This document shows positions 9,100 through 29,831 of a stretch of 63,595 nt of DNA, one piece after another. The stretch comes from Candidatus Hydrogenedentota bacterium (lineage in GTDB: Bacteria > Hydrogenedentota > Hydrogenedentia > Hydrogenedentales > SLHB01): assembly GCA_903925285.1 (NCBI GenBank), contig CAIYET010000115.1, positions 1 through 63,595 on the forward strand, read 5' to 3'. Position numbers and translations under genes: made by a program. The notes under the pieces are model-generated. The model was not told the DNA's origin, searched no databases, and saw nothing but the letters and a program-made list of their open reading frames with translations. Each line of letters starts with the position of its first letter. Position 1 is the first letter of the stretch.

Positions 9100-11769
9100 A
9101 TGCAACTAGCGCATTTGAACGTAGCCACAACCGCGCAAATCGCGCAACTAATGAAAACCAGCGCGAGCGTGCGCGCTATCGCGGCAACGTCATCGTCGCT
9201 CAAGCCAGGTATCCCGCACCAACCTGGGCGCGGTGATATACCGATGTCTTGGGCGCAGAATTTCATGCCACCTGGCTTCCCGCTGTCTCCCCTCGCTCCC
9301 CAACTGGGTGCCGCTCGCCAGCCCAACTATAACCAGAATCCGTCGTTAGAGCCGCGCGTGCAAAGTCGTTTGACGGCGCAAGCGGTCAGCACCGATTCAT
9401 CTGGGCGCACGCTTTACCAAGTCACCGATGACGAAGGCGCCTATCAGTTCGTCCCACGCGCTTATCAATTCCCACCAGCCGTCAATACCACGATCACGCC
9501 ACGCATTAGCTATGGTCTGATGTCGTTTGCGGATATTCAAGAACTGAGTTTCAGCACACCCGATGTCATGCTCTGCTGGAAGCTGCTCAAACGCGAGTTC
9601 AGCGGACTGAATCCTCATATCATTCACGATGACGGCGAACCTTGCACGGACAACAAGATCACGCGTTTGGCGCGCTATCCCGATGGCTACCACGGCATGA
9701 GCGTTTGGTTATCGCGCTGGTTCTACAACTCGGTGATTTACGGCGCACCCGCGCTGTATCTGCCGCGAGATCGCAAAACTGGGATGATCACCGGTCTCGT
9801 CAACGTCGATGGATCGACCATCTTCACGCTGATCGATGAAAATGCGGCGGTGCCGGCGCCACCTGCACCTGCGTTCTTGCAGATCATCTATGGCGTGCCG
9901 TATGGCTTTGCCAGCACGGAGCAACTTTGGTATAAACCGCAAGAGTTGCAAGTCAGTTCAGAGTATGGCATGGCGCTGGTCGAATCGGCGTATCTGCCGG
10001 CGATGCTGCTGAATAAAATCTGGCAGTATCAAACGGCTTGGTTCACCACGGGCACGATGCCCGAGTACGTCGTCAATGCTCCCCCTGGCTGGACCAATGA
10101 CCAGGTTGCCGCGTGGCTCGTCACCAAGTCGCAAGCGTTACAAGGCAATCCCGAACTGCGCACGCAGTTCGATGTCTGGCCCGCTGGCTTCACGCAAATG
10201 GCGAGCAAGAGCGTTGAATTTCGCAAAGATATTTACGACACGGCGAAGCGCGAGCTGATGGAGCACGCTGGCATCCCAATCGCAGAGGTCGGCGACACAC
10301 AGGGCCGCGGCGGACTGGGCGGCAAGGGCTTGATGGACGCGATGTCCCAGCAAGTGTTTCGCAAATCGTTTCTGCCGGCAATCAATGCGACGGCTGAACC
10401 GTTCAACGATGTGCTCGCGATCAACAAGCAAGAGTGCGATGACGGCGAGGTGTATCATCGCTTCGAGTGGAGCTTCCCAAAAGAAAGCATCGACCCCGCC
10501 AAAGAACGCGAGAAAGTAAATGAGGACTTTCAGAACGGCGGCTTGACGCTGGGCGAGTATCGCGAAGCCATCGGACAAGAACGCTTCAAGGATCAACGCG
10601 ATGACCTGATCTACTTGAAGGGCGGCGCCTTCATTGCGCCGGATGGCACGGTCTGGGCAAACGCTGGGAAGCAACAAGACCCAGGAGCGGATCCCGCGCA
10701 ATTCCCAGGCGTCCAGATTCCAGGGCAGAAACCACCGCAACCAAACGCGCAACACGCGCCCGGTCTCCCGCCCGGTGCTCCAAGCGGTCCAACGCAGGCG
10801 GCGGCTGATGCGCCAGGATCGGTTCAGAATCTATCCAAGTCCGCCGAGCATGATGGCGTGATCGCGTTGCGCGTGCCAGCGCCGATCGCGAATGACATCT
10901 TCCTGCAAGCGCAGGCGCAGATCAACGCGGGATTGGATGCGCTGGAGACGCCTGACCAATATGTTGCTTGGGGCGGCGAGTGGAATGACTTTGACCTAGC
11001 GAAGCGCGCCAACACCTTGGCAAAGCATTGCGGCGTGTGCCCGCCAACGGATGAGCAACCTGGGGACGATGCCTACTATGGCGCGCCCATCATGCGCAGT
11101 ACCACGGTGGATGCGCCGATCAATGGCGCCAACGGCACGGAGATCGTTGCGGTTTCACCCAAGGGTCTGGACTCGCGTCCATTCGCGTGGAAGCCCGAGG
11201 GCGATGAGAATGCCAAACTGAATGAACAGATCGGGCATCCCCAGTATTTGGCAGAAGAAGCGTGCTACCTGATCGACCGCACGCTGCAACTCTTCCTCGT
11301 GCCCGTGTCCTTTGTCGCCGAACTAGAGGGCGAGGGCGGCGCGGCGATTCACTGGGTCCTCAACAGCGGCGAGATCCTGCACGCGAACGACTACGCAGAA
11401 GACTGGGTGCAAGCGGCGGCTGTGCTCGATTTCATCTGTGGGCAAACGGATCGCACGCACAATCCGCACAAGTTGAACACCAACTATCTGACGCATCCCG
11501 ATGATCCAAGCCGTCCGATTCTGATCGACAATGGACTGGCGTTCCCAGTGGCAGAGAGTCCACGCAAGATTGCCAGTGACTTTATCAATGCCTGGGGCGA
11601 CCAACAGATCGATCCCGACCTGCTCGATGCGGTTGCCGCGTTGCGCGATAACACGGTCATCTGGAAGCGAGTCGCGCATCTCGTTGGTGCGGATCCAGTC
11701 GCGCAAGCGCTTGAACGCATCGACACGTTGGTCAGCGAAGGCGCGATTCCTGAGCAAGCGAGCGATTGA
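9100..11769 (+). CDS. Portal protein fused to a C-terminal PI3/4-kinase-like domain
   Basis: Portal-like core (LVNVDGSTI, AFLQIIYG, YGMALVE, WFTTGTMP, GLTLGEYREAIG), Pro/Gln linker, then FAWKP, EEACYLIDRTLQLFLVP, AVLDFICGQTDR and LIDNGLAFP. Confidence 0.8.
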   Translation: MQLAHLNVATTAQIAQLMKTSASVRAIAATSSSLKPGIPHQPGRGDIPMSWAQNFMPPGFPLSPLAPQLGAARQPNYNQNPSLEPRVQSRLTAQAVSTDSSGRTLYQVTDDEGAYQFVPRAYQFPPAVNTTITPRISYGLMSFADIQELSFSTPDVMLCWKLLKREFSGLNPHIIHDDGEPCTDNKITRLARYPDGYHGMSVWLSRWFYNSVIYGAPALYLPRDRKTGMITGLVNVDGSTIFTLIDENAAVPAPPAPAFLQIIYGVPYGFASTEQLWYKPQELQVSSEYGMALVESAYLPAMLLNKIWQYQTAWFTTGTMPEYVVNAPPGWTNDQVAAWLVTKSQALQGNPELRTQFDVWPAGFTQMASKSVEFRKDIYDTAKRELMEHAGIPIAEVGDTQGRGGLGGKGLMDAMSQQVFRKSFLPAINATAEPFNDVLAINKQECDDGEVYHRFEWSFPKESIDPAKEREKVNEDFQNGGLTLGEYREAIGQERFKDQRDDLIYLKGGAFIAPDGTVWANAGKQQDPGADPAQFPGVQIPGQKPPQPNAQHAPGLPPGAPSGPTQAAADAPGSVQNLSKSAEHDGVIALRVPAPIANDIFLQAQAQINAGLDALETPDQYVAWGGEWNDFDLAKRANTLAKHCGVCPPTDEQPGDDAYYGAPIMRSTTVDAPINGANGTEIVAVSPKGLDSRPFAWKPEGDENAKLNEQIGHPQYLAEEACYLIDRTLQLFLVPVSFVAELEGEGGAAIHWVLNSGEILHANDYAEDWVQAAAVLDFICGQTDRTHNPHKLNTNYLTHPDDPSRPILIDNGLAFPVAESPRKIASDFINAWGDQQIDPDLLDAVAALRDNTVIWKRVAHLVGADPVAQALERIDTLVSEGAIPEQASD

Positions 11770-11779: not shown

Positions 11780-12601
11780 ATGAATCCAACGCTACGCCGC
11801 CCCATCCAAGCGCAGGTCAAACGCAAAACCGCGCTCGCGCTGAATCAATGGTATCAGAGCGTCTACCATTCGATTCGCTTTGTGCAAAAGCAAGAACCCG
11901 TCATCGACTGGGAAGCCGAAAAGAAAAAGTTTGAGGATGAACTGCTGGCGATCATGGCCTGGGCATCGAGCGAATACAGTCGCATCGAGGAAGACTTCTG
12001 GGCGCAGCGCGGGAAGATCATCTCACCCGACGCGCAGCGCATCCTCGACCAATACGAGATCGATGCCGGCAAGCGGCTCGCGCGAATCGGCGACACGACC
12101 GAGCGCAATACCAAGTCTGCCGTCGAAAACTGGGATGGGACGGATCGCAACGACTTGATCGCTGGCGTGAACCGCTGGTACGGCGAAGATCGCGCCGCCA
12201 ACATCGCCAAGATGGAAACGGGGTTTCTGCTGACGGCTGGCGCGCTCATCACAATGATGGCCATAGACACGCATCAGTGGATTTGGCGACACGGCGAAGA
12301 GTGCGACACGGGACCATGCGAGCTGATCTGCGCGCCGAATGAAGGCGAGGTGTTTTCATACGATGTGCCAATGCCGCCGATGAGCACTCATTACGGTTGC
12401 GACTGCTATGGCGAGCCATACGATCCAAGCATGGTCTTCGTGCCGGGCGGAGCGGTGGATGCGATCAACGCGCCGGCTGAACACGAAGTCAACATGGATC
12501 CACCTGGACTGGGAACGCCAGAGCATCATCTATGGACAAAGCAAGTCGTGCCTGGTGGGTTGAGACGCAGTCGAACGGAAAATACTCGGCGGCGACGCTG
12601 A
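11780..12601 (+). CDS. MuF/SPP1 gp7-like minor head protein
   Basis: RAANIAKMET, W..W, C..C and HYGCDC; directly after the portal. Confidence 0.75.
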   Translation: MNPTLRRPIQAQVKRKTALALNQWYQSVYHSIRFVQKQEPVIDWEAEKKKFEDELLAIMAWASSEYSRIEEDFWAQRGKIISPDAQRILDQYEIDAGKRLARIGDTTERNTKSAVENWDGTDRNDLIAGVNRWYGEDRAANIAKMETGFLLTAGALITMMAIDTHQWIWRHGEECDTGPCELICAPNEGEVFSYDVPMPPMSTHYGCDCYGEPYDPSMVFVPGGAVDAINAPAEHEVNMDPPGLGTPEHHLWTKQVVPGGLRRSRTENTRRRR

Positions 12602-13140
12602 AGAAATCGCAGGCGTTGACACGAACTGCAATCAAAGCCACATACGACAGAACCCAGGAAACGCTCGGCAAGATGGGCGTGAAAGAGCTAACCGTCTATC
12701 GCGGGATCGATGTGAACAAGAAGCTGTTTCCAGGAAGACAGTATATCCTCAAAAGCAACGCGCTCGAATCATGGTCAACTGATCCAAAGACTGCTTCAAA
12801 GTTTGGCGGCGCCGTGCTGAAAGCCAAGATTCCCGCGTCACGCATCTACAGCACGGCACGCACTGGACCAGGATGTTTGAACGAGTACGAGGTGATCATC
12901 ATCGGCAACAAGAAGGGAACGCGCGACTACGGAACGGTGGTGAGCAACGTCAAGCACGGTCTGGCGCCTTGGCAGAAGATGGTCAAGGCAGACGAACCAA
13001 ACGAAGACGATGTCATCGACTTGGCGAACGACACCAACTCGGACTGGATCAAACGCGTAGACGATGGCAAGAATCGCGACGAAGAACTCGAAACACACGC
13101 GCAACTCGCGCAAAAGAGTAAGGATGAACACATACAATGA
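12532..13140 (+). CDS. ADP-ribosyltransferase (R-S-E clade), probably the C-terminal module of MuF
   Basis: VYRG...ESWSTD...NEYEV; frame is open from 12481 and overlaps the end of MuF. Confidence 0.75.
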   Translation: MDKASRAWWVETQSNGKYSAATLKKSQALTRTAIKATYDRTQETLGKMGVKELTVYRGIDVNKKLFPGRQYILKSNALESWSTDPKTASKFGGAVLKAKIPASRIYSTARTGPGCLNEYEVIIIGNKKGTRDYGTVVSNVKHGLAPWQKMVKADEPNEDDVIDLANDTNSDWIKRVDDGKNRDEELETHAQLAQKSKDEHIQ

Positions 13141-13369
13141 CCAAGCTCGCTGCACTGCTTGCGGATCGACGCGGATCGCCGCCAAGTACTGCACGGGACA
13201 CGAGAAACCTGATCGCACGTTCGCCGATCCGCCAATCACGCATCACGCGCCGTTGATCCACCGAACTTGCAACAACTGCGGCTTCACCTGGGACGAACTG
13301 CCGATCAACTCGGCAACTGACTTTGGACCGAACAAGATCGCGAATGGCGATCTCAGCAAATCCGCCTAG
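13124..13369 (+). CDS. Small zinc-ribbon protein
   Basis: CTACG...CNNCG. Confidence 0.6.
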   Translation: MNTYNDQARCTACGSTRIAAKYCTGHEKPDRTFADPPITHHAPLIHRTCNNCGFTWDELPINSATDFGPNKIANGDLSKSA

Positions 13370-13840: not shown

Positions 13841-14292
13841 ATGCAATACAAGATCACGGCGTCGAGACTGGCTCGGTGGGCAAGAGCGGAAACAAGATCG
13901 CGCCACTGGCAATGCACCAGATGGCGATGCAAGCGGTTGGTCTTCCAATCTCAATCGAATTTTCGACGCAAAAGATCGTCGGCTACGTCACGGCTGCAAC
14001 TGAGACGGAAGCCGGCGTTTCTATTGAGGGGCTGTGCAGCCGTAAAGCAACGGATCAGCACCTCATTTTCGTCGTGCCTGGGATGCGCATCAACAAGAAA
14101 CACAACGAAGGCAAAACCATCGTCATCGATGACATCACCATGTTCGGATTTGCGATCACGACTGACCCCGACGACGACAGTCTCACCCCAATCAAAGAAG
14201 AGGCGACAGAGCAAGACAAAGACTGGGATGCCACGCTCGAACTTATCACGGCGCAATCAACGTGGCTCAATCCAAGGCGATTTACCGAATGA
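13841..14292 (+). CDS. Hypothetical protein (frameshift near the start)
   Basis: RBS and ATG at 13841; main frame is 13876-14292. Confidence 0.45.
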
Positions 14293-15092
14293 GCCATAGA
14301 CTGAAATCCGTCAGCATTGTTGTTGGCACGATGAACCGCTTGCCATTGCTACAGCAGATGGTAGCGAGTGTATGCGAGGACATGCGCAACTTCTATGGAC
14401 GTTGGCAATTCGTGATCGTGGATTCTAGTGACAATCTGGAAACAGCCGACTGGATTACGCATCACAAAAGCGTTGGTTTCACCTATAAAAAGATGGAACA
14501 ACAAGGCGCCGTCGCCGCGTTCAATGCCGGCTTTGCATTGGCGCAATGCGACTTCGTCGTCGCGCTGAACGATGACTGCATCATCCATCCGCCGGTCATT
14601 CCAGTCGCGATCCAGATGCTTCAGAACGACCCGCAGATCGGTCAAATCGCGATCCCCTACAACGTGCCGACCAATAACGCGGCGGGGCATAGTGAGCTGC
14701 TGCTCCAACACATCAACGTCAATGGGCATGTGGTGATGTACGCCAATTTCAGCGTCATGCGGCGCGCGCTCGGAGCTGAACTGGGTTGGTGGCAAAACAT
14801 CTACCAGCAGTACGGCGGCGACACGCATCTATCCATCGCCGTCTGGAATGCGGGTCTCAAGGTCGTGGGGCTCAATCCACCTGGTTTCATCGAGCACATC
14901 GAAGCGATGGACGGCACCCGCCGTGGCAATGGCGGGGCGGATCGGCTCTTTGAATACTGGCAGGGTTGGGAAGGGCCAGATCGTTCTACATTAACCAAGA
15001 TGAGGCACGATGATGATGATAAATGTTATCACGGCACTGGCGTCCGCCAAAGACTTTCTAACCCAAGTCACGGAGCGCATTCCGCCCGGTGA
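14289..15092 (+). CDS. GT2-family glycosyltransferase
   Basis: VSIVVGTMNR, VIVDSSD, AFNAGF, VVALNDD and YGGDT. Confidence 0.85.
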   Translation: MSHRLKSVSIVVGTMNRLPLLQQMVASVCEDMRNFYGRWQFVIVDSSDNLETADWITHHKSVGFTYKKMEQQGAVAAFNAGFALAQCDFVVALNDDCIIHPPVIPVAIQMLQNDPQIGQIAIPYNVPTNNAAGHSELLLQHINVNGHVVMYANFSVMRRALGAELGWWQNIYQQYGGDTHLSIAVWNAGLKVVGLNPPGFIEHIEAMDGTRRGNGGADRLFEYWQGWEGPDRSTLTKMRHDDDDKCYHGTGVRQRLSNPSHGAHSAR

Positions 15093-15276
15093 AAAGCAAC
15101 GACATTCACTGACGCTGAACGATTCAGGGTTGGAGCTGACGCTGTTCGTTGGAAAATACTATCTGCCGATCTCGCTGAACGAAGCCGACTTGGTCGCCAG
15201 CGTGGACAGTCTAGTCAATGACATCGAGAGGATCTATCGCGATTTCACGAAACAGGAAGGCATCGATGCGAAATAA
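15010..15276 (+). CDS. Hypothetical protein
   Basis: 88 aa ORF within the operon. Confidence 0.55.
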   Translation: MMMINVITALASAKDFLTQVTERIPPGEKQRHSLTLNDSGLELTLFVGKYYLPISLNEADLVASVDSLVNDIERIYRDFTKQEGIDAK

Positions 15277-15378
15277 AATTATCTCAAGCAACTGGTTTGT
15301 CGCGCTGGTAGCACTCGCGTTTACAGGGATGGGTGTGGTCATCGTCAAGGCATTCATGGATGCACTCCGTATGCTGGG

Positions 15379-16656
15379 ATGGATTCAATGAACTCACCCC
15401 ATCTTTACGATTTCGGCGAAGAAAACTGGGAACGCAAACTGCATCTCGCGTGCGGCGGCATCTATCTGCTGGGGTACGAGAACTCGGACATTGTTGGCGA
15501 GGTGCGCGCCGCCGAGAACTTTGAGCCAAACCTCACTGACATCAAGGACTATTACGCTCGCCTCGATGGGTCGATCAGAAACCTGCCTGTGCGGCGCAAG
15601 ACCATTGTGGATCGCACGTTCAATTTCATCGATCCACCCTACGAACCTGGCACGGTCGATAAGATCGTGTGCATTCAAGCGCTGGAACACCTGAACCAAC
15701 AGAACGCGCATGCCACTCTCGCGCGCTGGTGGAACATCCTCAAGCCCGGTGGCGTACTGATCGTGTCGGTGCCACGCATGGACGATACGCTCGAGCTGCT
15801 GCACCAACCTGACCGCGCTGACTTTGCGCGCCGGCACCTCGAAGGATCGCGACGTGATATTCACAACGTCCACCAATCGTGGTTCAACGCGCCGGACATT
15901 GAATGGCTGCTTGACCATCACGGGTTTACCCGTGTTTCATTATTGCCTAACTTCCACCTTTATCCCGCGCTGGTCGTGCGAGCGGTCAAGGCAGATCGCT
16001 TCGTGCCAGATCGACGCTACCAGATGCCCCTGCCGCATTACGACGAAACCTGTAAAACCGTGCTCGATGTCGGACCCGGCGCCTACCCTTTGCCCATGGC
16101 CACGCATTGCTTCGATGTGAACGATCGCTATGAGGACTCGCGCCGCGTGCCGTGTGACATCGGCGATGTAGAACACCTGCCCTACGATGACAACGCATTC
16201 GATTACGTCTACTGCTCGCATGTGCTCGAGCATACGCTGGATCCGCTGAAAGCATTGCGCGAACTGCAACGAGTCGGCAAGCGCGGATATGTCGAAGTGC
16301 CGGCAGTCACCATGGACTTTCTTATGCAGCACGGCGATGCCCACACACGCGCTGACGGCAAGGCAGGGCGATGGATGTGCTTACCCATTCCAGGCGGCAT
16401 CGTCTTCGTCGAGCGGAGCGATCAACTGACCGACGCGGGATTCAATGACGCACGCTGGCGCAACCTGTGGCAGATGATCACGCAATACCAAGTGCCGCTC
16501 AACGCCAACGAGCAATTCTTTCGTGAATTTTTCTGGAGCCACCAAGACACACTCAATGTGTCGGCGAGCTGGAACAAGCCGACCATCAACAACGCGCGCG
16601 CGGTCGCACTGCACATCGTTGAAGATGGGCAAGCGGTACGCTGGGAGATCCTATGA
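15379..16656 (+). CDS. Tandem class I SAM-dependent methyltransferase (two domains)
   Basis: KLHLACGG...ALEHL...ILKPGG and VLDVGPG...LPYDDNAFDYVYCSHVLEH. Confidence 0.85.
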   Translation: MDSMNSPHLYDFGEENWERKLHLACGGIYLLGYENSDIVGEVRAAENFEPNLTDIKDYYARLDGSIRNLPVRRKTIVDRTFNFIDPPYEPGTVDKIVCIQALEHLNQQNAHATLARWWNILKPGGVLIVSVPRMDDTLELLHQPDRADFARRHLEGSRRDIHNVHQSWFNAPDIEWLLDHHGFTRVSLLPNFHLYPALVVRAVKADRFVPDRRYQMPLPHYDETCKTVLDVGPGAYPLPMATHCFDVNDRYEDSRRVPCDIGDVEHLPYDDNAFDYVYCSHVLEHTLDPLKALRELQRVGKRGYVEVPAVTMDFLMQHGDAHTRADGKAGRWMCLPIPGGIVFVERSDQLTDAGFNDARWRNLWQMITQYQVPLNANEQFFREFFWSHQDTLNVSASWNKPTINNARAVALHIVEDGQAVRWEIL

Positions 16657-16901
16657 TTCAAAACACGGCATCGCGATTCGGAAAGTTTTGCATAGCGCAT
16701 GGGCAAGCGATTGCAATGGCGTCAATCATCGAGGCGCAGACGCCAATCACGCAAGGAATTCGCGTTCAAGGCACAACTTTGGTGCGCTTTCACGACGATG
16801 AGAAGGGCGTCACCTGCTGGCAACCTCTTACATCGATAACGTCTCTTTCTAGCGCAAGTGCGGCAATCGCTTGTCTGCCGGACAAGGACTTGCTACGATG
16901 A
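16653..16901 (+). CDS. Hypothetical protein
   Basis: ATGA start/stop coupling at both ends. Confidence 0.5.
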   Translation: MIQNTASRFGKFCIAHGQAIAMASIIEAQTPITQGIRVQGTTLVRFHDDEKGVTCWQPLTSITSLSSASAAIACLPDKDLLR

Positions 16902-17473
16902 TCACCGTCACCGTCATGGCGCACACGAAAACAATGGCGAGCACCCTACCACATTTCCGCAAGATGTTTGCCAAGAACTGGCAAGGGCAATCCTTTACGA
17001 TTGCCGGTAGTGACAAGGTATGGAGCGATGCCGCCATCGATTATTTCAGCACCTTAGATGGAAACGTGACAGTGCTTATGCTCGACGACTATCTGCTGTC
17101 GGATCACGTGGATCATCACAAGGTCAACCTGTGTTGCAACTACCTGCGTGTTCATCTGGAAATTGGGTGCATTCGATTGAACCCGTGTCCTGGTCCAGAG
17201 ATGGACTATTCTGAATTTCCGTGGCTGGGCGAGTTCAGTCGAACCCAGGATTACATTCTCAGTTTGCAACCGACTGTATGGCGCGTGTCCTGCTTGATCG
17301 ATCTGATGCGCGAGGGTGAGAGTGCCCACGATCTCGAACGATTGGGACAACAACGCGCCCGCGACTCCAAATGGCGGTTTCTCGGAACACGCGAGAACCT
17401 GATCAGCATCAACAACTTGATGCGGATGGGCGACATCGATCCTGCGGTGCTCGACTGGGTGAATAGCCAGTGA
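16898..17473 (+). CDS. GT-A-like glycosyltransferase (short)
   Basis: VLMLDDY, IRLNPCPGP, SLQPTVW and GESAHDLE. Confidence 0.55.
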   Translation: MITVTVMAHTKTMASTLPHFRKMFAKNWQGQSFTIAGSDKVWSDAAIDYFSTLDGNVTVLMLDDYLLSDHVDHHKVNLCCNYLRVHLEIGCIRLNPCPGPEMDYSEFPWLGEFSRTQDYILSLQPTVWRVSCLIDLMREGESAHDLERLGQQRARDSKWRFLGTRENLISINNLMRMGDIDPAVLDWVNSQ

Positions 17474-18012: not shown

Positions 18013-18192
18013 ACTGACTCTGCTCTATCACGAAACACGCGTGGCCATTCGCTATGGCGAGACGTTGACATTCGGGTCAGACCACACACGCCTTTCGCTG
18101 TATGGCGAAGAGATTCACATTTCAAACTATCTTCCATTTGGCGCGGCGTACCAGATCGGCATCGATCCAGCCAGGCAACAAAGCGATCAAGA

Positions 18193-19796: not shown

Positions 19797-19869
19797 CGTG
19801 GCAGGAAAGCCCGCTGTATTGCAAATCCATGCGAAATCGGCTGGCGCGACAATTCTCGTAAGAGGTGAA

Positions 19870-21097: not shown

Positions 21098-22290
21098 TAA
21101 ACTTTTTACAAGGGCACGTGCTCGAGCAGCTGAAAACGATTGGCGACGGCACGGTCCAGACCATCGTCACAAGTCCGCCCTATTGGGGACTTCGCGCCTA
21201 TGGAACCGAGCCGCAAATCTGGCGCAATGGGCACGAGCTATGCGCGGAGCACGAATGGCAATCTTTCACACAAATTAAAAAGCGTCCCGATTTGCCCCCC
21301 GAACCGAACAGCAACCCGAACATCTTTTGTTCAGCCGGGACGCGGTTGCGGCGCATCAAAGCAATAAACCTTGACGACTACGGGCGCGGCAAGCGCGAGG
21401 ACATTGTGATGAAGTCCGACACCTGCGCTGTTTGCGGAGCATGGCGCGGCGAGCTGGGACAAGAGCCGACGCCGGCGGAATACGTGCGCCACCTGGTCGA
21501 GATTTTCAGATATGCCCGGCGGACGCTGCGCGACGACGGTACGCTCTGGCTCAACCTCGGCGATTCGTACGCAGGAGGAAACGCGCCCGGCAACAAGGTG
21601 ATTGGGAATCCTGAATTCAACAAGAACCGACCCAGCCGAGCGGCGACCCTGACCGGCGGAAAAAAAACGCCGGCTGGACTGAACGCCAAGAACCTGATCG
21701 GCATCCCCTGGCGTGTTGCCTTCGCGCTCCAGGACGATGGCTGGATTTTGAGAAACGACATCATCTGGGCGAAGCCGAACCCCATGCCCGAAAGCGTCAC
21801 CGACCGCTGCACGCGCTCGCACGAATACGTTTTTTTATTCAGCAAGTCGCCCAGATATTATTTCGATGCGGAGGCGATAAAAGAGGAGAGCGTAACAAAA
21901 AGTATGCCAGGTAGTAATTACACAGATACCAGGATGACCCACGGCACAGGTGGCGGAAATTCAGGATTCAAAAAAGCGTTTGAGAAAATGAAAACCGGAG
22001 AACTCAACGGACGCAACAAGCGCGATGTGTGGACCGTGAGCACATTGCCCTACAAAGGCGCCCACTTCGCCACGATGCCGCCCAAGCTGGTCGAGCCGAT
22101 GATTCTCGCCGGCTGCCCAGCCGGTGGGACCGTGCTCGATCCATTTGGTGGCAGCGGGACCGTGAGCCAAGTCGCCGAGCGCCTGGGACGCAGCAGCATC
22201 TACATCGACCTCAACCCAGCCTACCTCGAACTCGCCCAAGAGCGAAACAAGCAACGCGCGCTGACCCCAGCGAGCGAGGGCGAATCCTAA
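21094..22290 (+). CDS. N4C/N6A DNA methyltransferase (beta class)
   Basis: VTSPPY, IIWAKPNPMPES, HFATMP and VLDPFGGSGT. Confidence 0.92.
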   Translation: MINFLQGHVLEQLKTIGDGTVQTIVTSPPYWGLRAYGTEPQIWRNGHELCAEHEWQSFTQIKKRPDLPPEPNSNPNIFCSAGTRLRRIKAINLDDYGRGKREDIVMKSDTCAVCGAWRGELGQEPTPAEYVRHLVEIFRYARRTLRDDGTLWLNLGDSYAGGNAPGNKVIGNPEFNKNRPSRAATLTGGKKTPAGLNAKNLIGIPWRVAFALQDDGWILRNDIIWAKPNPMPESVTDRCTRSHEYVFLFSKSPRYYFDAEAIKEESVTKSMPGSNYTDTRMTHGTGGGNSGFKKAFEKMKTGELNGRNKRDVWTVSTLPYKGAHFATMPPKLVEPMILAGCPAGGTVLDPFGGSGTVSQVAERLGRSSIYIDLNPAYLELAQERNKQRALTPASEGES

Positions 22291-22291
22291 A

Positions 22292-22723
22292 ATGAATGTG
22301 GCGCACGACCGACCAGCGCGCGCGCGCGCAACCCAATCGGTTACAAACTGGCGGCGACGTGCTCGACCTGAGTCAAGCGGATCGCGATAGCCGCTTGCTT
22401 CCATTCCCAAGGTCATCAACAAGATCGTGCACAATCGAAAATTACCGACGCACGTCTTTTCCGAAGGCGCACCGGACGACTTTGATGAACTGATGGGAAG
22501 TGTGCTAGGTGAGGTTACGCTGCACCTCAACGGCGATCCAACCGAAGCATTCAACGCATTGGCGAGCGCACGCGTGCTCATCACCTCGCGCAGTGGATTC
22601 TCGTATCTCGCCGGCATCGTCAATTCACACCTGAAGATCGCGCCGCCGTTCTGGCACCACATTCCCGACGCGGATGGATGGATCCAAGCCACGCTCGATG
22701 GAGAATTTGAACTATGGCATTGA
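22292..22723 (+). pseudogene. GT-B fucosyltransferase-like C-terminal fragment
   Basis: HVFSEG...AFNALASARVLITSRSGFSYLAG; N-terminus missing. Confidence 0.5.
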
Positions 22724-23658
22724 CAACACACTACTGCACACTCTTCGATGAGACTTATGCCGTCAAAGGGCTTGCGCTGGCCGCGTCTATGGCGTTGAAT
22801 GTCCAAGATTATAGATTGCACATTCTGGCGCTCGACTCAACAACCTTTCGACTCGTCTGCGAATGGATCGAGGGCGCGGATTTACTCGGACATGGCTGGA
22901 TGGAAAAGCACGTCACCGTCACCAACCTGACCGATGTAATGACGGATGAACTGCGCGACACGCGCCGCTCGCGAACCTGGCAAGAGTTTTGCTGGACGCT
23001 GGCATCGGTGTGGCTTAAAATGAATCTGCTGGCTGTGCCCGAAGGCGAACGCTGCATCTACCTCGATGCGGACTCCTATTTCTTTTCTGATCCAAAGCCC
23101 GTGTACGCCGAGATTGGCGATGCCAGCATCGCGCTTGTGCCACATCGCATTCATCCAAGTCGTGCAGAATTGTTTATCGGCAACGGCACCTACAACGCCA
23201 ACTTCATCTACATGCGGAACAATCTAACGGGGCGAGCGTTCGCCGAGGACTGGGCGCGCCGCTGTATCGACTGGTGCTTCTACCGGCAAGAGGATGGAAA
23301 ATTTGGCGACCAGGGGCATCTGGATGAACTCGTCAAAATCCATCCCGTGTTTGACATCCAATCACGCGGACTAAACCTTGCGCCGTGGAATCAGGGACAA
23401 TACAGTTACTGGGTGTCTGAACTTGTCGGCGCGCCCGACTGGATCGAGGTCTGGGATCGCGATCCAGTCGGGCGCGAAGTCTTGCGAACGGATCCGCTGG
23501 TGCTCTATCACTTCCACGAGTACATGCACAACATACGCTTGACGGCGTGGGACCTGCATCCAATGGTGCGCGAGAAAATTTACGCGCCTTACATCGAACA
23601 TTCCGAGCAACTCAGCCAATATCTCGCCGAGAGAAAAGAACGATGGCAGACCTCTTGA
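22714..23658 (+). CDS. GT-A (GT8-like) glycosyltransferase
   Basis: YCTLFD..Y..KGLAL, IYLDADSYFF, FGDQ..LD, NLAPWN and YHFH. Confidence 0.8.
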   Translation: MALTTHYCTLFDETYAVKGLALAASMALNVQDYRLHILALDSTTFRLVCEWIEGADLLGHGWMEKHVTVTNLTDVMTDELRDTRRSRTWQEFCWTLASVWLKMNLLAVPEGERCIYLDADSYFFSDPKPVYAEIGDASIALVPHRIHPSRAELFIGNGTYNANFIYMRNNLTGRAFAEDWARRCIDWCFYRQEDGKFGDQGHLDELVKIHPVFDIQSRGLNLAPWNQGQYSYWVSELVGAPDWIEVWDRDPVGREVLRTDPLVLYHFHEYMHNIRLTAWDLHPMVREKIYAPYIEHSEQLSQYLAERKERWQTS

Positions 23659-23784
23659 CAGTACGGGTGGAGATTCCGCTCGGTGTAACATACACCACGC
23701 TCCAATGGGTGGGCGCGTACACGCAGGGAACTATTCCAAGCTGGCGTGATTTGCATTTTCCGAAACCAAGATTCAAGGAGTAAC

Positions 23785-24036
23785 ATGGCAGACACAGACG
23801 ACAAATTGGATCCCGAAGTCGCTAAACAACTGGCGGCGGCGGCTAACCAAGAGCACGGCGAAGCGGAGTTTAGCCAGGACGCAAAAGCTGGTGTCAGTGT
23901 CGCGTTTCACATTGCAACGCGAATTGCTGGATACTATAAAGCCCTCGTCGCCAATGGTATCGAGCCAACCGACGCGATGGAAATGACCAAAGCGGCGTCA
24001 AACATCTATTGGGTGCATTGGCTCGATAGAAAATGA
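23785..24036 (+). CDS. Hypothetical protein
   Basis: AAGGAG RBS before the ATG. Confidence 0.6.
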   Translation: MADTDDKLDPEVAKQLAAAANQEHGEAEFSQDAKAGVSVAFHIATRIAGYYKALVANGIEPTDAMEMTKAASNIYWVHWLDRK

Positions 24037-24072
24037 AGGCACTAACATACTTGACACACCGCGAATGTAAAA

Positions 24073-24747
24073 ATGATTGAAACGCTCGTTTGGATTCTCC
24101 CAAGACCGAGAAAAATTATTTACAAAGGCGGATTTCCTTTGCACTTTGAAAAAAAGATACTTCGCCTTTATGGAATTGATGAGAAGAACCCGCAAGGCGT
24201 TCTGCATCCGTTCGGTGGTCGTGCCGAGTATGGAGTTCGCGTTGATTTGAATGCAGATGTAAAACCAACTGTTTGCGCGGACGCGCACCATCTCCCATAC
24301 GCAGATGAATCATTTTCCTTTATTATTTTCGACCCACCTTATTCAGAAGATGAAGCCAAACGGCTTTATGGAACTCCTTATATCAAGGTCGTCAAGTGCA
24401 TTGAAGAATCAGTGCGCGTCCTGAAAAACGGCGGTTACATTGCGCTCTATCATCGGCTTTGGTTGCCTAAACCTGACGGTACGGATTATCACAAACGAAT
24501 TATTGTTCATCCCGGGCAATGGCACGAAGCCCGAACAGTTCACATTTTCAAGAAAAGAACCGAACAGGAATATCAACAGCGAATTGAGGTGAGTCAAGTA
24601 TATGAGTTCCAAAATGAAACCACGCATCCTACTCGCCACGCCGGTCTTCGACCAAAAAGAGTACGCCGTGCCGCAATGGCTCGAAGCCGACAAACTCTAT
24701 ACACACGAACACGACACCTTGATGGTGGACAACAGCGCAACGCCTGA
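24073..24747 (+). CDS. DPPY-type methyltransferase (putative DNA N6-adenine)
   Basis: LHPFGG, DAHHLPY, IIFDPPY and RVLKNGG; visibly AT-richer than its flanks. Confidence 0.75.
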   Translation: MIETLVWILPRPRKIIYKGGFPLHFEKKILRLYGIDEKNPQGVLHPFGGRAEYGVRVDLNADVKPTVCADAHHLPYADESFSFIIFDPPYSEDEAKRLYGTPYIKVVKCIEESVRVLKNGGYIALYHRLWLPKPDGTDYHKRIIVHPGQWHEARTVHIFKKRTEQEYQQRIEVSQVYEFQNETTHPTRHAGLRPKRVRRAAMARSRQTLYTRTRHLDGGQQRNA

Positions 24748-25312
24748 TTTTTTCGAGCGTCTAAAAACAATAGCCGCGCCCAGCGTACTTACGGCATTGA
24801 ATAATGATTTCCGCGCGCTGTTGATGAACCGAGTGGCGACGCCCGGCGGAGAATACTTCGCGCCGCTCACGCAAGCGGCAGAGCATATTCGCAAGTTCGC
24901 GCTCGTGTATGGCTATGACTACTGGCTGAACATCGATGTCGATGAGTGGGGCGATCCCGATCTAATCGACTATTTGCTAGAGCTGATCGGCGATGCTGAC
25001 GTGCTCGCACACGCCAGCCCAAACCGCCAGCTCAACCAATGGATCGATGGCGGATTCGGCTGTGTCATGTTCAATCGCCGGACTCTGATGTCCTTCTCAT
25101 TCGACGAGTGCCCACCCACCATGGCGCACGATGTTTGGTTCTTTCGCTACGTGCGCGGATATTCACCGCTCGACTATTCTGGGTTGCCAGAGATCAAGAT
25201 CAAGCAAACTCGTGGCACGCGCATCCTGAATCATCAAGACGGGATGTGCGGCGAGAAAATAAACGCTTTCCCAGATGGGAAACCCTACCAACTTACAGTG
25301 AGGTTGACATGA
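24602..25312 (+). CDS. GT-A-like glycosyltransferase
   Basis: ILLATP, MVDNS, YDYWLNIDVD and GFGCVMF. Confidence 0.65.
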   Translation: MSSKMKPRILLATPVFDQKEYAVPQWLEADKLYTHEHDTLMVDNSATPDFFERLKTIAAPSVLTALNNDFRALLMNRVATPGGEYFAPLTQAAEHIRKFALVYGYDYWLNIDVDEWGDPDLIDYLLELIGDADVLAHASPNRQLNQWIDGGFGCVMFNRRTLMSFSFDECPPTMAHDVWFFRYVRGYSPLDYSGLPEIKIKQTRGTRILNHQDGMCGEKINAFPDGKPYQLTVRLT

Positions 25313-25527
25313 GCACCAGACGAAAACTTGCACGCCGAGCGCCAGCAAGCAAAGAGGCACGGCGAATGAAACACGGACGCGGGGCGCCGACGCCACCCCA
25401 CGCTTGCAAACCCGGAAAAGATCTGTCTGACGAACACACCCATCATCCATATTTTGTATGCCGCTTTTGCGGCGGTGCGATGAAGTCCTATCCGACCAAG
25501 CGCAGGCCGAACAAAAATGCTGAGTGA
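25309..25527 (+). CDS. Small basic Cys/His protein containing repeat copy 2
   Basis: GAGG RBS; HAC...H...CRFCG. Confidence 0.55.
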   Translation: MSTRRKLARRAPASKEARRMKHGRGAPTPPHACKPGKDLSDEHTHHPYFVCRFCGGAMKSYPTKRRPNKNAE

Positions 25528-25858: not shown

Positions 25859-25860
25859 CC

Positions 25861-25924: not shown

Positions 25925-25977
25925 AAGGCGCCGACTTTCTAACACGGACAACCGTGTGGAAAGTCGGCGCCTTTTTT
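25925..25977 (+). terminator. Intrinsic terminator in the leader of the capsid operon
   Basis: 15-bp perfect arms AAGGCGCCGACTTTC/GAAAGTCGGCGCCTT, an inner stem and a T-run. Confidence 0.8.
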
Positions 25978-25993
25978 GTTACTAGGAGGAACT

Positions 25994-27532
25994 GTGGCAG
26001 ACGACAACCTCGCAGAATCAACCGAACCTTTCGGAAAATTTACGTTCAACATCCCCATCACCAAGGTCGATGAGGTCAAGCATGAGGTTTGGGGCACGGC
26101 TTGCGTCGAGGAACCCGACCGCGGCGATGAGCAGATGGACTATAACTCGTCCAAGCCGCACTTTGTCAAATGGTCGGAAGACACCTTCAAGCGCTCCTGC
26201 GGGAAATCATTCGGCAACGTGCGCGCCATGCACCAGCCCATTGCCGCTGGGATCGTGATCGATTTCAAAGCTGACGATGCGACCAAGTCATTCCCGATCG
26301 GCACGCACATCACCGATGAAAACGAATGGTACAAGTGCCTCACTGGCACATACACCGCATTCAGCATCGGTGGCAAGTACGGCAAACGCTGGATGACGCG
26401 CACCGATGACGGTCGCACGATCATGTCCTATACCGCCATCCCGAACGAGGTTTCCCTCGTCGATGTGCCCGCCGTCCCGCACGCGACCTTCTCCGTCGTC
26501 AAAGCAGACCACAGTATAGAAGCTCGCGAATTTCTCGCCAAAGACGAACTGACCGTGAGCGTCAACGGCAAGATGCCGTTCGGCGAATTCATGTCCCTCG
26601 CTTTACAAAAACTAATCCCAGGTTTCCCGAAGCCAACCAACCGCAAGGCAGAGGACGAAACCATTTTGCAATACGCCGCCACGACCACACCGCAAGCGTT
26701 CACGCCCGCGAGCGTGCCATCCACCGCCGCCCTGCAAGCCAACCACCCGCAAGCCCAGGTCATCAATCCTGACAGCATTCCCGTCTCCAGCGCCATGCGC
26801 AAGTATCCCGATGGGCGATCCATGCCCGTCCTGGCAAAAGAGGTCGGCGATGCCCCGGGTCTGCGTCACGGCGATCCGGGCAGCAAGAGCATCTGTGAGC
26901 ATTGCAAGAATTTCCGCGATGTCGCGCCGGGCTATTGCCGCTTGTATGATTTCCCATCGCCCAAGGACTGGACCTGCGATTCTTTCACATTGGAAGATGG
27001 GACTGGGGAACCGGACGAAATGGCGCACGTCGCCAAGCTGACCAAAGCAGATGTCAAATGCCCGTCGTGTGGCGAAGCCATCGCCATCGAAAAAGCCGGC
27101 GACTTGAAATGCTCGGCGTGCGGCAAAGCGCTGACCGCGACTGATGACACGGAGAGTGGCGGATTCAAGCTCGCTTTGTCAACGCCAGCGGCTATTTCCG
27201 CGCAAACTGAGATCACCGATGACGACGCGGCCACCAAGATGGCTGACCTTGTGGGGATCGCGAAGAAAGCTCGCGATCTGCCGGGATCGCTGCTCAAAGG
27301 CGGAAGCGACCGCGCTACGTATGGCGACCCCGTGAATAAAGCTTACGCCTGCGACACCAAGGCGCACGCTTTCATTTCCATTCAAAAATTCAATGCTGGC
27401 ATCGGAGCAGATCAATACTCCAAACGCGAATGGGCGATACTCGGGCGCCGACTTCGCAACCTCGCCAGCACGACCTTTCAACGATCGTACCGATACAACC
27501 CGCGCGAGAAGCAAATCGAGCGCGAATTCTAA
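25994..27532 (+). CDS. Prohead protease (XkdF/HK97-like) with Cys-rich and DUF6582-like appended domains
   Basis: VWGTA, VRAMHQPIAAG, FSIGG and EVSLVDVPA; CEHC..C..WTC; CPSC..CSAC; YGDP...DT..H; AGGAGG RBS. Confidence 0.8.
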   Translation: MADDNLAESTEPFGKFTFNIPITKVDEVKHEVWGTACVEEPDRGDEQMDYNSSKPHFVKWSEDTFKRSCGKSFGNVRAMHQPIAAGIVIDFKADDATKSFPIGTHITDENEWYKCLTGTYTAFSIGGKYGKRWMTRTDDGRTIMSYTAIPNEVSLVDVPAVPHATFSVVKADHSIEAREFLAKDELTVSVNGKMPFGEFMSLALQKLIPGFPKPTNRKAEDETILQYAATTTPQAFTPASVPSTAALQANHPQAQVINPDSIPVSSAMRKYPDGRSMPVLAKEVGDAPGLRHGDPGSKSICEHCKNFRDVAPGYCRLYDFPSPKDWTCDSFTLEDGTGEPDEMAHVAKLTKADVKCPSCGEAIAIEKAGDLKCSACGKALTATDDTESGGFKLALSTPAAISAQTEITDDDAATKMADLVGIAKKARDLPGSLLKGGSDRATYGDPVNKAYACDTKAHAFISIQKFNAGIGADQYSKREWAILGRRLRNLASTTFQRSYRYNPREKQIEREF

Positions 27533-27545: not shown

Positions 27546-29831
27546 ATGAAAGCAAGTCTTCAAAAAGATTTCGCCGCCACCGCTCGCGAGCTCACCGAGA
27601 AGCTACGCGCGCAGGTCAGTAGCGGTGATACCCAGGGCGCACTCGCATCCCTCGATCAGATGGATGCGGTGAGTGATGTCGCAAGCGATGCCGACAACAC
27701 GGTCGCGAACGTCGCGCTGCCCCCGTCTTCGCCGAGCACGCCCAGCTTGGCATCGGCGGCTTCGTCCGTCGCACCGAGTACGCCAAGCGCCAGCGCACCG
27801 AGCGGGACAACCGACTCGTCGCTTGCGCAAGCGGCAACCCAACCGTCCCCGGCAACTCCGCCGGCAACACCGACGCCCTCTTCGTCTTCAGTGACCAAGG
27901 GCGCGATTGCCGTGGGAACGCCACCGCCACCCGTTGGATCGGCGATTCTGGGATCGCTCGTGGGTGATGTCATCGCCAAGTCCGACGACGCTTTCCTCGA
28001 TGACCCGGTCGCTGAATTGTTCGGCACGGGTGTGAGTGGCGCGACCATGGCAAAGCAAATGCCCCAGCAACCCGTCGTGCTAGCCACGCCACCACCCAAC
28101 CCGCAAGCGGCTCCGTTCTCGTTCTATGGGCGGATGGGCGACGACTTTTACATCCAAGAAAAATTGCCAGCATTCACCAAGGCATTGCTGACCGGCGGTC
28201 GCTTTGCTTCGGAGAATGCGCTTGATCTGTTCAAGACCGGTCGAGGCAATTACGACTTCCATCTCTTCGACATGACGCTGCACGCGGCGTATCGCCAAGT
28301 TCTGAACAAGGGCGGATTCCGCGATACCAATGCAACGGAATTTCGCAAGATGGCCGTCAGTGCCATGGATGGCAACGAGATCCGCTCGCGCGGACTCGCG
28401 AACGATTTCAACAAGGGCGTCATCAGCACGACCGCACCTGGCTACTACTTGCAGATGATGGTCAAAATGATGCTCCCTGTTTTGACTCCGATGCTCAATC
28501 GCATCCCGATGCAAAAGCCCCGCACGGGTGGTAGCCGCGCGGAATGGCGCGTCAACTTGGGTTTCCAGAACTTGGACGAAACCCAGGGCATGATTGCGCC
28601 CGAAGCCGGCGTGGCGATTGGTAGCACCACCGGCACCGGGCAAGCGATCAGCGAGAATCCAACGCTCTTCCAAACCCCCTACTCTCGCCATCCTGTCAAC
28701 GATGCCGTGACGGTGGAAGCCCAGTACGCGATGCTTGGATACGACGATGCCTTCCAATACAGCATCGTCCGCGCCCTGACCGCTTACTTGCGCATCGCCG
28801 AAATGGCAACGCTCTGGAACAACTACGCGGCAGTCGGCGCGATTGGCGCGGTGACCGCGACGACCAGCGGCTCGAGCTCCGCGCTCGCTGGCGGAACGAA
28901 CGACAAGTTTGCTGTGACTGGCTTGACCGGCATCGGCTGGCGCGGCAATCAACTCGGCATCGGCGGCAAGGGTGGAGCCAGCTCCGTCCAAGGTGAGACA
29001 GCGGCGACGCTGACCACCGCCACCGATCTCTCGACCGCAACGAGCGTCAAACTCACGTTTGCGGCAAAGCCAGGTTGCTTGGCGTATAACGTGTACTACC
29101 TGCCTTCGGGTGTGGTGGGAAACGCGCGCTACGTGGGCACGTACTACACCAACGCGATCACCATCACGGCTTTGCCGGCGGTGGGCGCGGCCAAGTCCTA
29201 CCCGACCGCGGACGGTTCCGCCAATGCGAACGGCTACGAAGGCGCTTTGCAATGGTGCGAGATGTCCACGATCTACGGAAACTCCATCACGAACAAAACG
29301 GTCACGGATCAAGCTGGCGCCGCTCTGACGCTGGCAGGTCCGAACCGCATCTCCGAGATCGACAAGATTCTTGCCGACCTGATGACGAACTGGCAACTCG
29401 CGCCGAGCTTGATCGTGGGCTCGCCGAATACCATTCGCCATTTCAACAACATCCTGCAATCGGGTGGATCGGCGCAACCGTACATCATCCATCTCGGCGC
29501 GGGACCCGAACAAGGGTCGCTCGTCGGCGGCATGTGGGCGGGCGCGTACACGAACAACTACTCGCTCGGCTTGCAGAATGTCCCGAAGGTCATCGACGTC
29601 ATGGCGCACCCGTATCTTGCGGACGGCACCTTGATGGTGATGACCGAAACAATTCCCTACCCGATGGCTCGCGAAGCGCGGGGCTGGGTGATCGAGCAAC
29701 AGATCCCGCTCACGTACTGGCCGCTCGCCGCATTGACGGCGTCCTGGCCCTACATGATGTTCTCGGACCAAGTGCTCGAGAACTATCACCCTCCGGCGCA
29801 AGCCGCCATTCAGTGCATCAACACGGCGTAA
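27546..29831 (+). CDS. Major capsid protein with N-terminal scaffold and an inserted Ig/FN3-like domain
   Basis: Follows the protease; strong RBS; low-complexity N-terminus; PVLTPMLNRIP and VMAHPYLADGTL; followed by a hairpin. Confidence 0.8.
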   Translation: MKASLQKDFAATARELTEKLRAQVSSGDTQGALASLDQMDAVSDVASDADNTVANVALPPSSPSTPSLASAASSVAPSTPSASAPSGTTDSSLAQAATQPSPATPPATPTPSSSSVTKGAIAVGTPPPPVGSAILGSLVGDVIAKSDDAFLDDPVAELFGTGVSGATMAKQMPQQPVVLATPPPNPQAAPFSFYGRMGDDFYIQEKLPAFTKALLTGGRFASENALDLFKTGRGNYDFHLFDMTLHAAYRQVLNKGGFRDTNATEFRKMAVSAMDGNEIRSRGLANDFNKGVISTTAPGYYLQMMVKMMLPVLTPMLNRIPMQKPRTGGSRAEWRVNLGFQNLDETQGMIAPEAGVAIGSTTGTGQAISENPTLFQTPYSRHPVNDAVTVEAQYAMLGYDDAFQYSIVRALTAYLRIAEMATLWNNYAAVGAIGAVTATTSGSSSALAGGTNDKFAVTGLTGIGWRGNQLGIGGKGGASSVQGETAATLTTATDLSTATSVKLTFAAKPGCLAYNVYYLPSGVVGNARYVGTYYTNAITITALPAVGAAKSYPTADGSANANGYEGALQWCEMSTIYGNSITNKTVTDQAGAALTLAGPNRISEIDKILADLMTNWQLAPSLIVGSPNTIRHFNNILQSGGSAQPYIIHLGAGPEQGSLVGGMWAGAYTNNYSLGLQNVPKVIDVMAHPYLADGTLMVMTETIPYPMAREARGWVIEQQIPLTYWPLAALTASWPYMMFSDQVLENYHPPAQAAIQCINTA

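Follow-up and report, generated by a model that had tools for sequence, protein, structure and literature searches.

Several tailed phages process their head proteins at short sequence motifs. The T4 protease gp21 cuts at L/I-x-E. In HK97 (gp4 and gp5; MEROPS S78), the genes run portal, protease, capsid, and the scaffold is the N-terminal delta domain of the capsid protein; residues 101-104 of the gp5 record read F-N-K103/S104 (throughout, a slash after Lys marks an established or candidate cleavage point), and we take S104 to be the mature N-terminus. According to PMC10052503, phiKZ-like giant phages and T4 are established cases in which capsid, portal and ejected proteins are processed at a motif: the prohead protease of the phiKZ-like phage SPN3US, gp245, recognizes a single A-X-E motif in all three kinds of protein, and phiKZ-like phages hold further motif copies inside propeptides. 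The T4 motif also serves to trim packaged, injected enzymes, among them the ADP-ribosyltransferase (ART) Alt, as stated in PMC5512222. Here we describe a hydrophobic-x-Lys motif, [LVIMF]-x-K, in the head module of an uncultured phage. The window analysed is one whole contig (C115; CAIYET010000115.1; 63,595 bp) of a metagenome-assembled genome assigned to Candidatus Hydrogenedentota; it has no terminal repeat, and its gene content reads as a tailed-phage genome.

A sequence-only reading of the window had proposed that this motif marks protein modules that a protease frees inside the head. Our analysis points primarily to a different use. We consider it likely, with good confidence, that hydrophobic-x-Lys is where a Lys-specific head protease of the HK97 type cuts, mostly for scaffold removal and capsid trimming. 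The motif (L, M, V, I or F at P3 and Lys at P1, often with Asp or Glu at P4 and Ala, Ser or Gly at P1') would be recognized by an HK97-family serine prohead protease, and its copies would cluster where prohead protein must go, namely in the C-terminal scaffold part of the protease protein and in the 290-residue delta domain of the capsid protein. A last cut after K290 would leave the mature capsid protein from G291. The inward-facing C-terminus of the portal bears a type II PI4-kinase-like domain, predicted to be catalytically intact; the protease would probably cut at the L-x-K before it, so that up to 12 free kinase copies may form per head, and the freed proteins may be injected into the host. 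For this proposal as a whole (head protease motif, scaffold clearance, capsid trimming and a probable kinase cut), which draws on sequence patterns and on analogy with the phages above, we estimate a probability of roughly 0.7. It retains the protease motif, the capsid start and the portal kinase of the sequence-only reading, drops its Cys-rich cargo and its MuF site, and moves the emphasis to scaffold clearance.

HK97 is matched in gene order, in the placement of the scaffold, and in a boundary tripeptide identical to the window's F-N-K290/G291, with a hydrophobic P3 and Lys at P1. The window phage differs from it in the length of the delta domain (290 amino acids [aa] versus 103, with a 140-aa disordered stretch rich in Pro, Ser, Thr and Ala), in a protease with a 340-aa scaffold-like tail bearing two Cys clusters, and in the marginal sequence similarity of that protease to gp4. 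With T4 it shares a short repeated motif enriched, by the same test, in scaffold and protease; however, T4 cuts after Glu and the window motif ends in Lys, T4 cargo has a common N-terminal targeting peptide while none was found among window proteins, and the main candidate cargo in the window is covalently part of the portal. The phiKZ-like phages use another motif and another protease lineage, and their cuts were shown by mass spectrometry, while those in the window are predicted.

The head proteins and their parts lie in the window as follows (ORF, open reading frame).

9100-11769, + strand: portal, 889-aa ORF (phrog_2662, 1.1e-23)
9100..10650, + strand: portal core, about aa 1-517 (phrog_2662, 1.1e-23; 22 viral loci and P0007-P0014)
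10651..11025, + strand: portal C-terminal linker with NLSK580/S, DLAK635/R and TLAK642/H
11026..11769, + strand: type II PI4-kinase-like domain, aa 643-889 (profile, AF2 and Foldseek)
11780..12601, + strand: MuF-like minor head protein, 273 aa, with an HxxCxC motif at its end
12532..13140, + strand: DRAT-like ART (Pfam DRAT)
13064-13369: small Cys-rich ORF, after the ART
25976-27532, + strand: protease-scaffold protein (phrog_9427 'head maturation protease', 3.8e-11)
25976..26503, + strand: prohead serine protease domain, aa 1-176, ending VVK176/A (TTG start uncertain)
26504..27532, + strand: scaffold-like C-terminal part with two Cys clusters and most motif copies
27546-29831, + strand: capsid protein, 761 aa (phrog_13692, 8.7e-37)
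27546..28415, + strand: capsid delta (scaffolding) domain, aa 1-290, ending DFNK290
28416..29831, + strand: predicted mature major capsid protein from G291 (GVISTT), where the phrog_13692 match begins

Motif enrichment in the head proteins

Motif counts were compared with expectations from whole-protein shuffles and from local shuffles in windows of 20 to 100 residues, using as background the 64 other ORFs of the contig (a greedy longest-ORF set, some members possibly spurious). All 18 strings quoted in the sequence-only reading are present, each once, in the proteins to which it assigned them: three in the portal, one each in the MuF-like protein, the ART and the Cys-rich ORF, six in the protease, and five plus GVISTT in the capsid. 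Pooled over these six 'head' proteins, 51 motif copies were observed versus 29.5 expected (z 4.6, whole-protein shuffles), while the 64 other ORFs showed no enrichment (179 versus 189.4, z -0.9), and the control patterns hydrophobic-x-E (32 versus 31.2) and hydrophobic-x-R (29 versus 26.8) were flat in the same six proteins. Lysines with L, V, I, M or F two residues before them make up 12 of 31 in the portal, 2 of 11 in the MuF-like protein, 7 of 23 in the ART, 1 of 7 in the Cys-rich ORF, 16 of 39 in the protease and 13 of 22 in the capsid.

Under local shuffles, the capsid (13 versus 5.3-6.1, about 5.7; p <= 0.002) and the protease (16 versus 8.5-9.4, about 8.6; p <= 0.006) remained enriched, as did the portal marginally (12 versus 7.2-7.5, about 7.3; p about 0.04); the MuF-like protein (2 versus about 2.6), the ART (7 versus about 4.8) and the Cys-rich ORF (1 versus about 1) were not. 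The protease and capsid excesses over expectation are the largest among the 70 window ORFs tested. Since local shuffles keep the signal, the motif is real and exceeds chance, though in only three of the six listed proteins. The idea that it is more frequent in head than in other proteins thus stands for the protease, the capsid and, marginally, the portal, and falls for the other three. Its supposed placement at domain boundaries is similarly divided: FNK/G of the capsid, VVK/A at the end of the protease domain and three portal sites fit, and DLSK/SA of the Cys-rich ORF does not.

Applied to T4 as a method control, the same test with [LI]xE found an excess in the scaffold gp22 (16 versus 5.6), gp21 (7 versus 2.5) and the gp23 propeptide (4 versus 1.6), and none in mature gp23, the portal gp20 or the sheath gp18; [LVIMF]xK was flat in every T4 protein tested. 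The enrichment test therefore detects a true cleavage motif, and Lys enrichment is no general property of scaffolds. In the HK97 delta domain, 6 of 13 lysines lie in the motif, with 2.8 expected (p 0.04). The T5 pb8 delta domain (9 versus 5.1) and the T5 protease (8 versus 4.6) also hold copies above expectation, and motif K159/A160 coincides with the pb8 boundary, presumably at residue 159/160.

Conservation in related viral loci

Close homologues of the module are rare: we found three capsid homologues (54-58% identity) and eight portal homologues (P0007-P0014). A portal profile search, however, recovered 22 viral contigs with the same module, ordered as portal with C-terminal extension, MuF, variable genes, protease and capsid. 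Twenty of these loci were counted, L017 and L020 being left out as near-duplicates. Protease-scaffold proteins from 13 loci held 205 motif copies versus 125.1 expected (z 8.65) and capsids from 11 loci held 74 versus 53.4 (z 3.4), values that count for less than they seem to, because the relatives share ancestry and z-scores across loci overstate independence. Background ORFs of the same loci were flat (n=170; 548 versus 538), and so were x-R, x-E, x-D and x-Q in the related scaffold proteins.

The capsid excess was highest in two proteins with long delta domains (L006, 13 versus 6.5; L010, 15 versus 6.2), and in phages with short capsids (510-530 aa) the excess sits on longer protease-scaffold proteins (L019, 21 versus 7.8; L013, 16 versus 7.0). 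By these counts, enrichment tracks the scaffold and delta-domain parts that are predicted to be removed, not cargo. The flanks of 358 scaffold lysines share a signature, with M/L enriched 2.5x, V 1.9x and I 1.6x at P3, and E 2.0x at P4.

Alternatively, the excess might be a by-product of amphipathic or coiled-coil scaffold sequence, unrelated to proteolysis. The scaffold and delta domains are helical in the capsid model, and several motif copies lie inside predicted helices, as such a by-product would have it. However, the excess is specific to Lys, being absent for the other four residues in the same proteins; the T4 scaffold shows no x-K excess and yet is rich in its own known motif; all three lysines of the disordered capsid linker are in the motif; and the exact boundary site is conserved and matches FNK/S of HK97. 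We therefore regard a structural by-product as very improbable, and return to a protease motif in what follows.

Capsid maturation

Within the capsid, 9 of 12 lysines in residues 1-290 are motif lysines versus 4 of 10 in residues 291-761, and the disordered Pro/Ser/Thr-rich stretch at 55-196 contributes 3 of 3. Four lysines, K212, K230, K268 and K290, are invariant in 4 capsid homologues, each in motif context. The position aligned to K290/G291 is hydrophobic-x-K in 15 of 16 capsid relatives, with the variants LQK/G, FAK/G, LNK/S, LAK/G, LRK/A and LKK/T; the exception, P0005, is the most distant relative and reads FSQ at the boundary, followed by S. Short capsids retain a 23-37-residue propeptide that ends in the boundary site. 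Furthermore, sequence conservation jumps at K290, where the phrog_13692 match (8.7e-37) starts. Because the boundary matches F-N-K/S of HK97 and is kept in 15 of 16 relatives, the motif is best read as an HK97-family, Lys-specific maturation motif, and on this conservation and analogy G291 is very probably the first residue of the mature capsid. The sequence-only reading had placed the start near GVISTT, and the conserved boundary, with the same tripeptide as HK97, agrees with it.

On the low-confidence capsid model, Foldseek returned nothing at E <= 0.001, its best rows being phage capsids, and VIA-align (residues 328-761) ranked HK97-fold capsids or encapsulins in all of its top 10 places among 48,161 chains (Z 10.8-8.4; for example 9ny2_A, rmsd 5.5, 172 aligned). 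Among annotated phages the capsid matched only two Brevundimonas phages (28% identity over 28% of the query). A single-protein capsid scan of viral contigs gave no match, and the capsid and protease profiles gave no meaningful match to PDB sequences. An all-beta domain is inserted in the capsid at about aa 450-560 (window about 28900-29200), with weak matches to fibronectin-III/monobody folds.

The protease-scaffold protein

Besides its PHROG match, the protease shows sub-threshold matches to Pfam Peptidase_S78_2 (0.0076; 16.7 bits, cut-off 24) and TIGR01543 (0.017; 15.3 bits, cut-off 59). H86 and S130 (in FSxGG) are invariant in 13 sequences and align, in a weak hhalign comparison with HK97 gp4 (E 0.0023, probability 12.5%), with H65 and S114, which we take to be the catalytic residues of gp4. 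In the window, as in the 12 related loci holding both genes, the protease gene immediately precedes that of the capsid. In P0003 (1253 aa) and at L008:11521-14628, protease-scaffold and capsid protein form one in-frame ORF.

Motif copies in the scaffold part lie at positions 189, 212, 219, 276, 288, 354, 357, 373, 430, 441, 455 and 471, and the C-terminal 100 aa of the protein are conserved in relatives. The protease domain closes with ATF-x-hydrophobic-hydrophobic-K followed by A or V in 12 of 15 sequences, with YVK in one more and Arg in two; this conserved Lys fits a putative self-release of the protease from its scaffold part. Two relatives have a ferritin-like (Dps-type) gene immediately before that of the protease (L003:15930-16466 and L008:11066-11557).

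The portal and its fused kinase

The portal core, which also has a Pfam Phage_portal match below cut-off (1.3e-4), is followed by a linker and a domain that the sequence-only reading had called a kinase, an assignment that profile and structure comparisons now support. A profile of ten sequences matched PI4K type II beta (PI4K2B) in PDB at 5.5e-5, with FAM20 kinases also found, and the good AF2 model (pLDDT 84.4, pTM 0.87) has PI4KIIalpha as its best Foldseek match (4hnd_B; E 3e-8, probability 1.0, TMq 0.56). TIGR03843 matches at 1.8e-4, and PI3_PI4_kinase (PF00454) matches relatives (L010, 7.2e-15), the window's own domain having no Pfam match. Its key residues are K698, D784-R785 and D810 of IDNGL; in the numbering of the ten aligned kinases, K68, D154-R155, N165 and D180 are invariant (the WKP lysine, the DR...N loop and IDNG). 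The WKP lysine, the catalytic loop DRxxxN(W/Y)L and IDNGL are common to human PI4KIIalpha/beta, from which the portal kinase differs in overall sequence (about 20% identity) and structure (TMq 0.56); FAM20-type protein and sugar kinases match as well. Since phosphatidylinositol is uncommon in bacteria, the match does not imply a lipid target.

The kinase family has many members: 2680 cluster representatives at E <= 0.001, 770 at <= 1e-10 and 106 at <= 1e-30. Among the best 146 representatives, 69 are 700-1700 aa long, and 50 bear a portal signature. A hydrophobic-x-K, typically L-x-K, stands directly before the kinase in 59 of the 66 representatives with a locatable start, which makes release plausible, and it is also present in sequences that have ASGVD, YSGVD or FTGVA in place of the HCGVC after it. 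The kinase model shows disorder ahead of K642 and an ordered chain from about K642/H643 onward. On these sequence patterns, we rate release of the portal-borne kinase by the protease at slightly below even odds.

The kinase might instead stay tethered to the portal and act in cis, either inside the producing cell or while heads are assembled and packaged, and never be released or injected; the L-x-K would then be structural. Several findings favor such a tether: the kinase is a constant feature of the clade rather than swappable cargo (present in 8 of 9 close homologues), nearly half of the best representatives are of the long form noted above, K642 is invariant together with the neighboring C and G, and portal linkers lack motif enrichment. 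Conversely, the P3 Leu is conserved although it lies in a segment that the model shows as disordered, the L-x-K is retained where HCGVC is replaced, and short stand-alone forms exist, some of them fragments. Moreover, L008 encodes the kinase as an ORF of its own (280 aa, L008:8701-9540) whose ATG overlaps the portal stop codon (ATGGATAA) and which keeps PLAK/QCGVC after a 44-residue leader, so attachment is not required. Taken together, a permanently tethered kinase seems possible but doubtful, and we continue with a protease cut before the kinase as the preferred reading. The existence of stand-alone kinases was not taken to demonstrate release, given that a number of them are incomplete or alternatively called: P0023, P0065 and P0079 begin within other domains, and the P0056 cluster includes an 868-aa member.

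Relatives carry inserts between portal core and kinase, either a 2H phosphoesterase (P0008, P0013, L021) or DUF5661, and in L004 the 2H domain follows the kinase instead of preceding it. In all five portals with a 2H domain or an apparent remnant (P0008, P0013, L021, L004 and the window), a motif lies upstream of the first strand as judged by eye, 3-8 residues away in four and further away in L004. The segment of the window between NLSK/S and DLAK/R (10837-11004, portal aa 580-635) resembles a 2H phosphoesterase remnant that has no H-x-T motifs; its YVAWGGEW aligns with VVAWAGDW of P0008, and its GVIALRVP resembles the first strand by eye only. At the other end of the portal, LMK/T (aa 17-19, window 9148-9156) is kept as hydrophobic-x-K in 6 of 9 portal homologues and may be a trimming site similar to that at the N-terminus of the lambda portal.

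Points against the proposal

Several observations weigh against parts of this proposal. The assignment of the protease to the HK97 family draws on weak matches plus one PHROG, and the capsid model is poor (pLDDT 52.6). Not every motif copy can be a site: MVK307 lies in a helix of the mature capsid and is surely structural, and IPITK/VDE, near the N-terminus of the protease and kept in nearly all relatives, is probably the first strand of the fold rather than a cleavage site. Portals of relatives are not enriched overall (201 versus 190.1), nor are their MuF proteins (53 versus 46.7) or ARTs (13 versus 11.6). Portal linkers hold 58 copies versus 45.2 expected, 14 of the 58 being the anchor site before the kinase; a general enrichment of the portal linker was rejected because it is gone once that site is set aside. 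Finally, the pre-kinase L-x-K might owe its conservation to a role in the fold.

The MuF-like protein, the ADP-ribosyltransferase and the Cys-rich ORF

The 273-aa ORF after the portal has no direct match to a hidden Markov model, PF04233 included. Its tblastn homologues (L019, 5.5e-20; L002, 5e-15; L016, 4.5e-13) include two that match Phage_Mu_F (PF04233; L002 3.8e-10, L016 2.7e-12), the best homologue, L019, having no Pfam match, and a language-model atlas assigns PF04233 to 12 of 30 matches (score 0.94). The gene begins 11 nt past the portal stop codon, a position it shares with its relatives. The earlier designation as MuF is supported, as a MuF-like protein, by the homologues that match PF04233 and by the atlas; FVQK as a processing site is not supported, given that MuF proteins lack motif enrichment.

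MuF polymorphic toxins and MuF-associated effectors are a known theme (Jamet 2017, PMC5576092; Zhang 2012, PMC3482391; PMC5512222), and portal- or MuF-fused 2H and RNase domains are predicted to be packaged and injected (Iyer 2017, PMC5512222). The window resembles these systems in that its MuF gene directly follows the portal and in that ARTs are fused or adjacent to MuF; a 2H phosphoesterase on portal or MuF occurs both in those papers and in the relatives studied here. The published systems differ in the route of release, which is proposed to be autoproteolytic or papain-like rather than by a prohead protease. MuF proteins of the relatives bear a fused NUDIX or DUF3626 domain or an ADPrib_exo_Tox ART (L012, 6.5e-24). 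Such fusions are seen at L003:11881-15498, L010:8679-10502 and L012:12337-13677 and in L013, L016 and L021, with an intein splicing domain in three.

The window's ART matches Pfam DRAT at 6.7e-7 (29.2 bits, cut-off 25), and its translation shows VYRG, ESWST and EYEV, which we take to be the R, S-x-S and E-x-E motifs of ARTs. The ART gene shares 70 nt with the MuF gene, in the -1 frame. We considered and rejected a programmed -1 frameshift that would join the two products, as inspection by eye of 12481-12601 revealed no X_XXY_YYZ heptamer; in L010, MuF and ART are separate genes. The position of the window's ART beside a MuF-like gene fits, by analogy, the known theme of MuF-associated effectors.

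Candidate sites flank the ART catalytic core, TLGK47/M before it and MVK152/A after it, and the first recurs as FAK/MG before the core of the L010 homologue. Moreover, the acidic tail of the ART (12988-13137) is 56% identical over 41 aa (E 3e-12) to the leader (residues 2-42) of P0072, a 317-aa protein that is the closest kinase homologue (its kinase is 62% identical to the window's) and whose leader ends FAK/HCGVC. One segment is thus motif-bounded on two different enzymes. This is the best single hint for the cargo idea, though it involves a single protein on a 2.2-kb contig, for which no genomic context was found in metagenome, genome or viral contigs. No second copy of the ART tail or other common leader was found in the window or the 22 loci, and a region search with the tail gave no candidate. 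The segment is mobile and may serve as a docking peptide or be a former inter-domain linker. A further recurring peptide, E-x-E-H-P-R-D-x-x-G-K/R-F (either K or R near its end), occurs in linkers of the L010 MuF and ART proteins, the L018 MuF protein and the L006 portal tail, and frequently adjoins a motif site.

These observations bear on whether the protease frees kinase, ART and Cys-rich modules in the head, all to be injected as effectors. The near-constant L-x-K before the kinase, the motif upstream of the 2H domain or remnant in all five such portals, the sites around the ART core, the tail shared with P0072, and the ART, NUDIX or DUF3626 domains fused to MuF are what such a system would predict, as would the packaging and injection of portal- and MuF-fused enzymes predicted by Iyer et al. 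2017 (PMC5512222). However, neither the ART nor the MuF-like protein nor the Cys-rich ORF is enriched for the motif, the P0072 link remains a single case, no common leader occurs on other window proteins, and most motif copies sit in scaffold parts. The Cys-rich ORF, in particular, has no homologue in any related head module, and its DLSK/SA, two residues short of the stop codon, delimits no domain, so we did not count it as cargo. We thus judge the full cargo system unlikely, and release of the ART by the protease, judged from its flanking sites, equally so; a protease motif acting chiefly on scaffold and capsid remains our preferred reading.

Genome context

Other structural genes of the window are placed as follows.

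6447-8264: large terminase (phrog_9, 1.8e-48)
30397-31071: head-tail adaptor

A tail-fibre protein with a Collar domain is encoded beyond the head-tail adaptor. The head module is interrupted by about 12 kb of non-head genes between the ART/Cys-rich ORF and the protease (glycosyltransferase, methyltransferase, exonuclease and DNA-methylase genes); in relatives, just 1-5 kb separate portal and protease. This stretch corresponds to the larger (14262-25312) of two blocks of DNA- or sugar-modification genes, the other being at 1595-4665. The blocks hold GT2 glycosyltransferases, SAM methyltransferases, N6/N4 DNA methylases and a DUF559 endonuclease, along with an RNase T-like exonuclease, a TET-associated glycosyltransferase, and WbqC and PIG-L proteins, which suggests a hypermodified genome. 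A 49-nt direct repeat (88% identity) occurs at 1542-1590 and 25350-25398, 23.8 kb apart, its second copy directly past the larger block and ahead of the protease gene. The repeat might have a regulatory role, for example as a promoter, or be the scar of a recombination event.

Implications

The Lys motif belongs to a known type of head-protease motif; what is new is the portal-fused kinase with its conserved pre-domain site. The fusion is widespread, and among open-access papers and bioRxiv we found none that links a portal to a PI3/PI4-kinase domain and none on DUF5661. Hydrophobic-x-Lys may provide a simple cleavage rule for a large group of HK97-type head proteases, and enrichment that tracks scaffold would offer a sequence-only test, validated on T4, for mature capsid N-termini in uncultured phages.

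More speculatively, a large clade of uncultured phages may load enzymes on the portal C-terminus as modules bounded by the Lys motif and release twelve copies of each, with the ART as a second cargo, a generalization that we offer as tentative and less likely than the kinase cut itself. If it were true, portal-borne modules (a kinase resembling PI4-kinases, frequently accompanied by a 2H phosphoesterase or DUF5661) would be freed beside the end of the DNA, in position to enter the host first. If the kinase is indeed released and injected, it would represent a novel means of delivering an effector in a set number of copies and a new class of phage kinase, possibly involved in counter-defence given its frequent 2H phosphoesterase partner.

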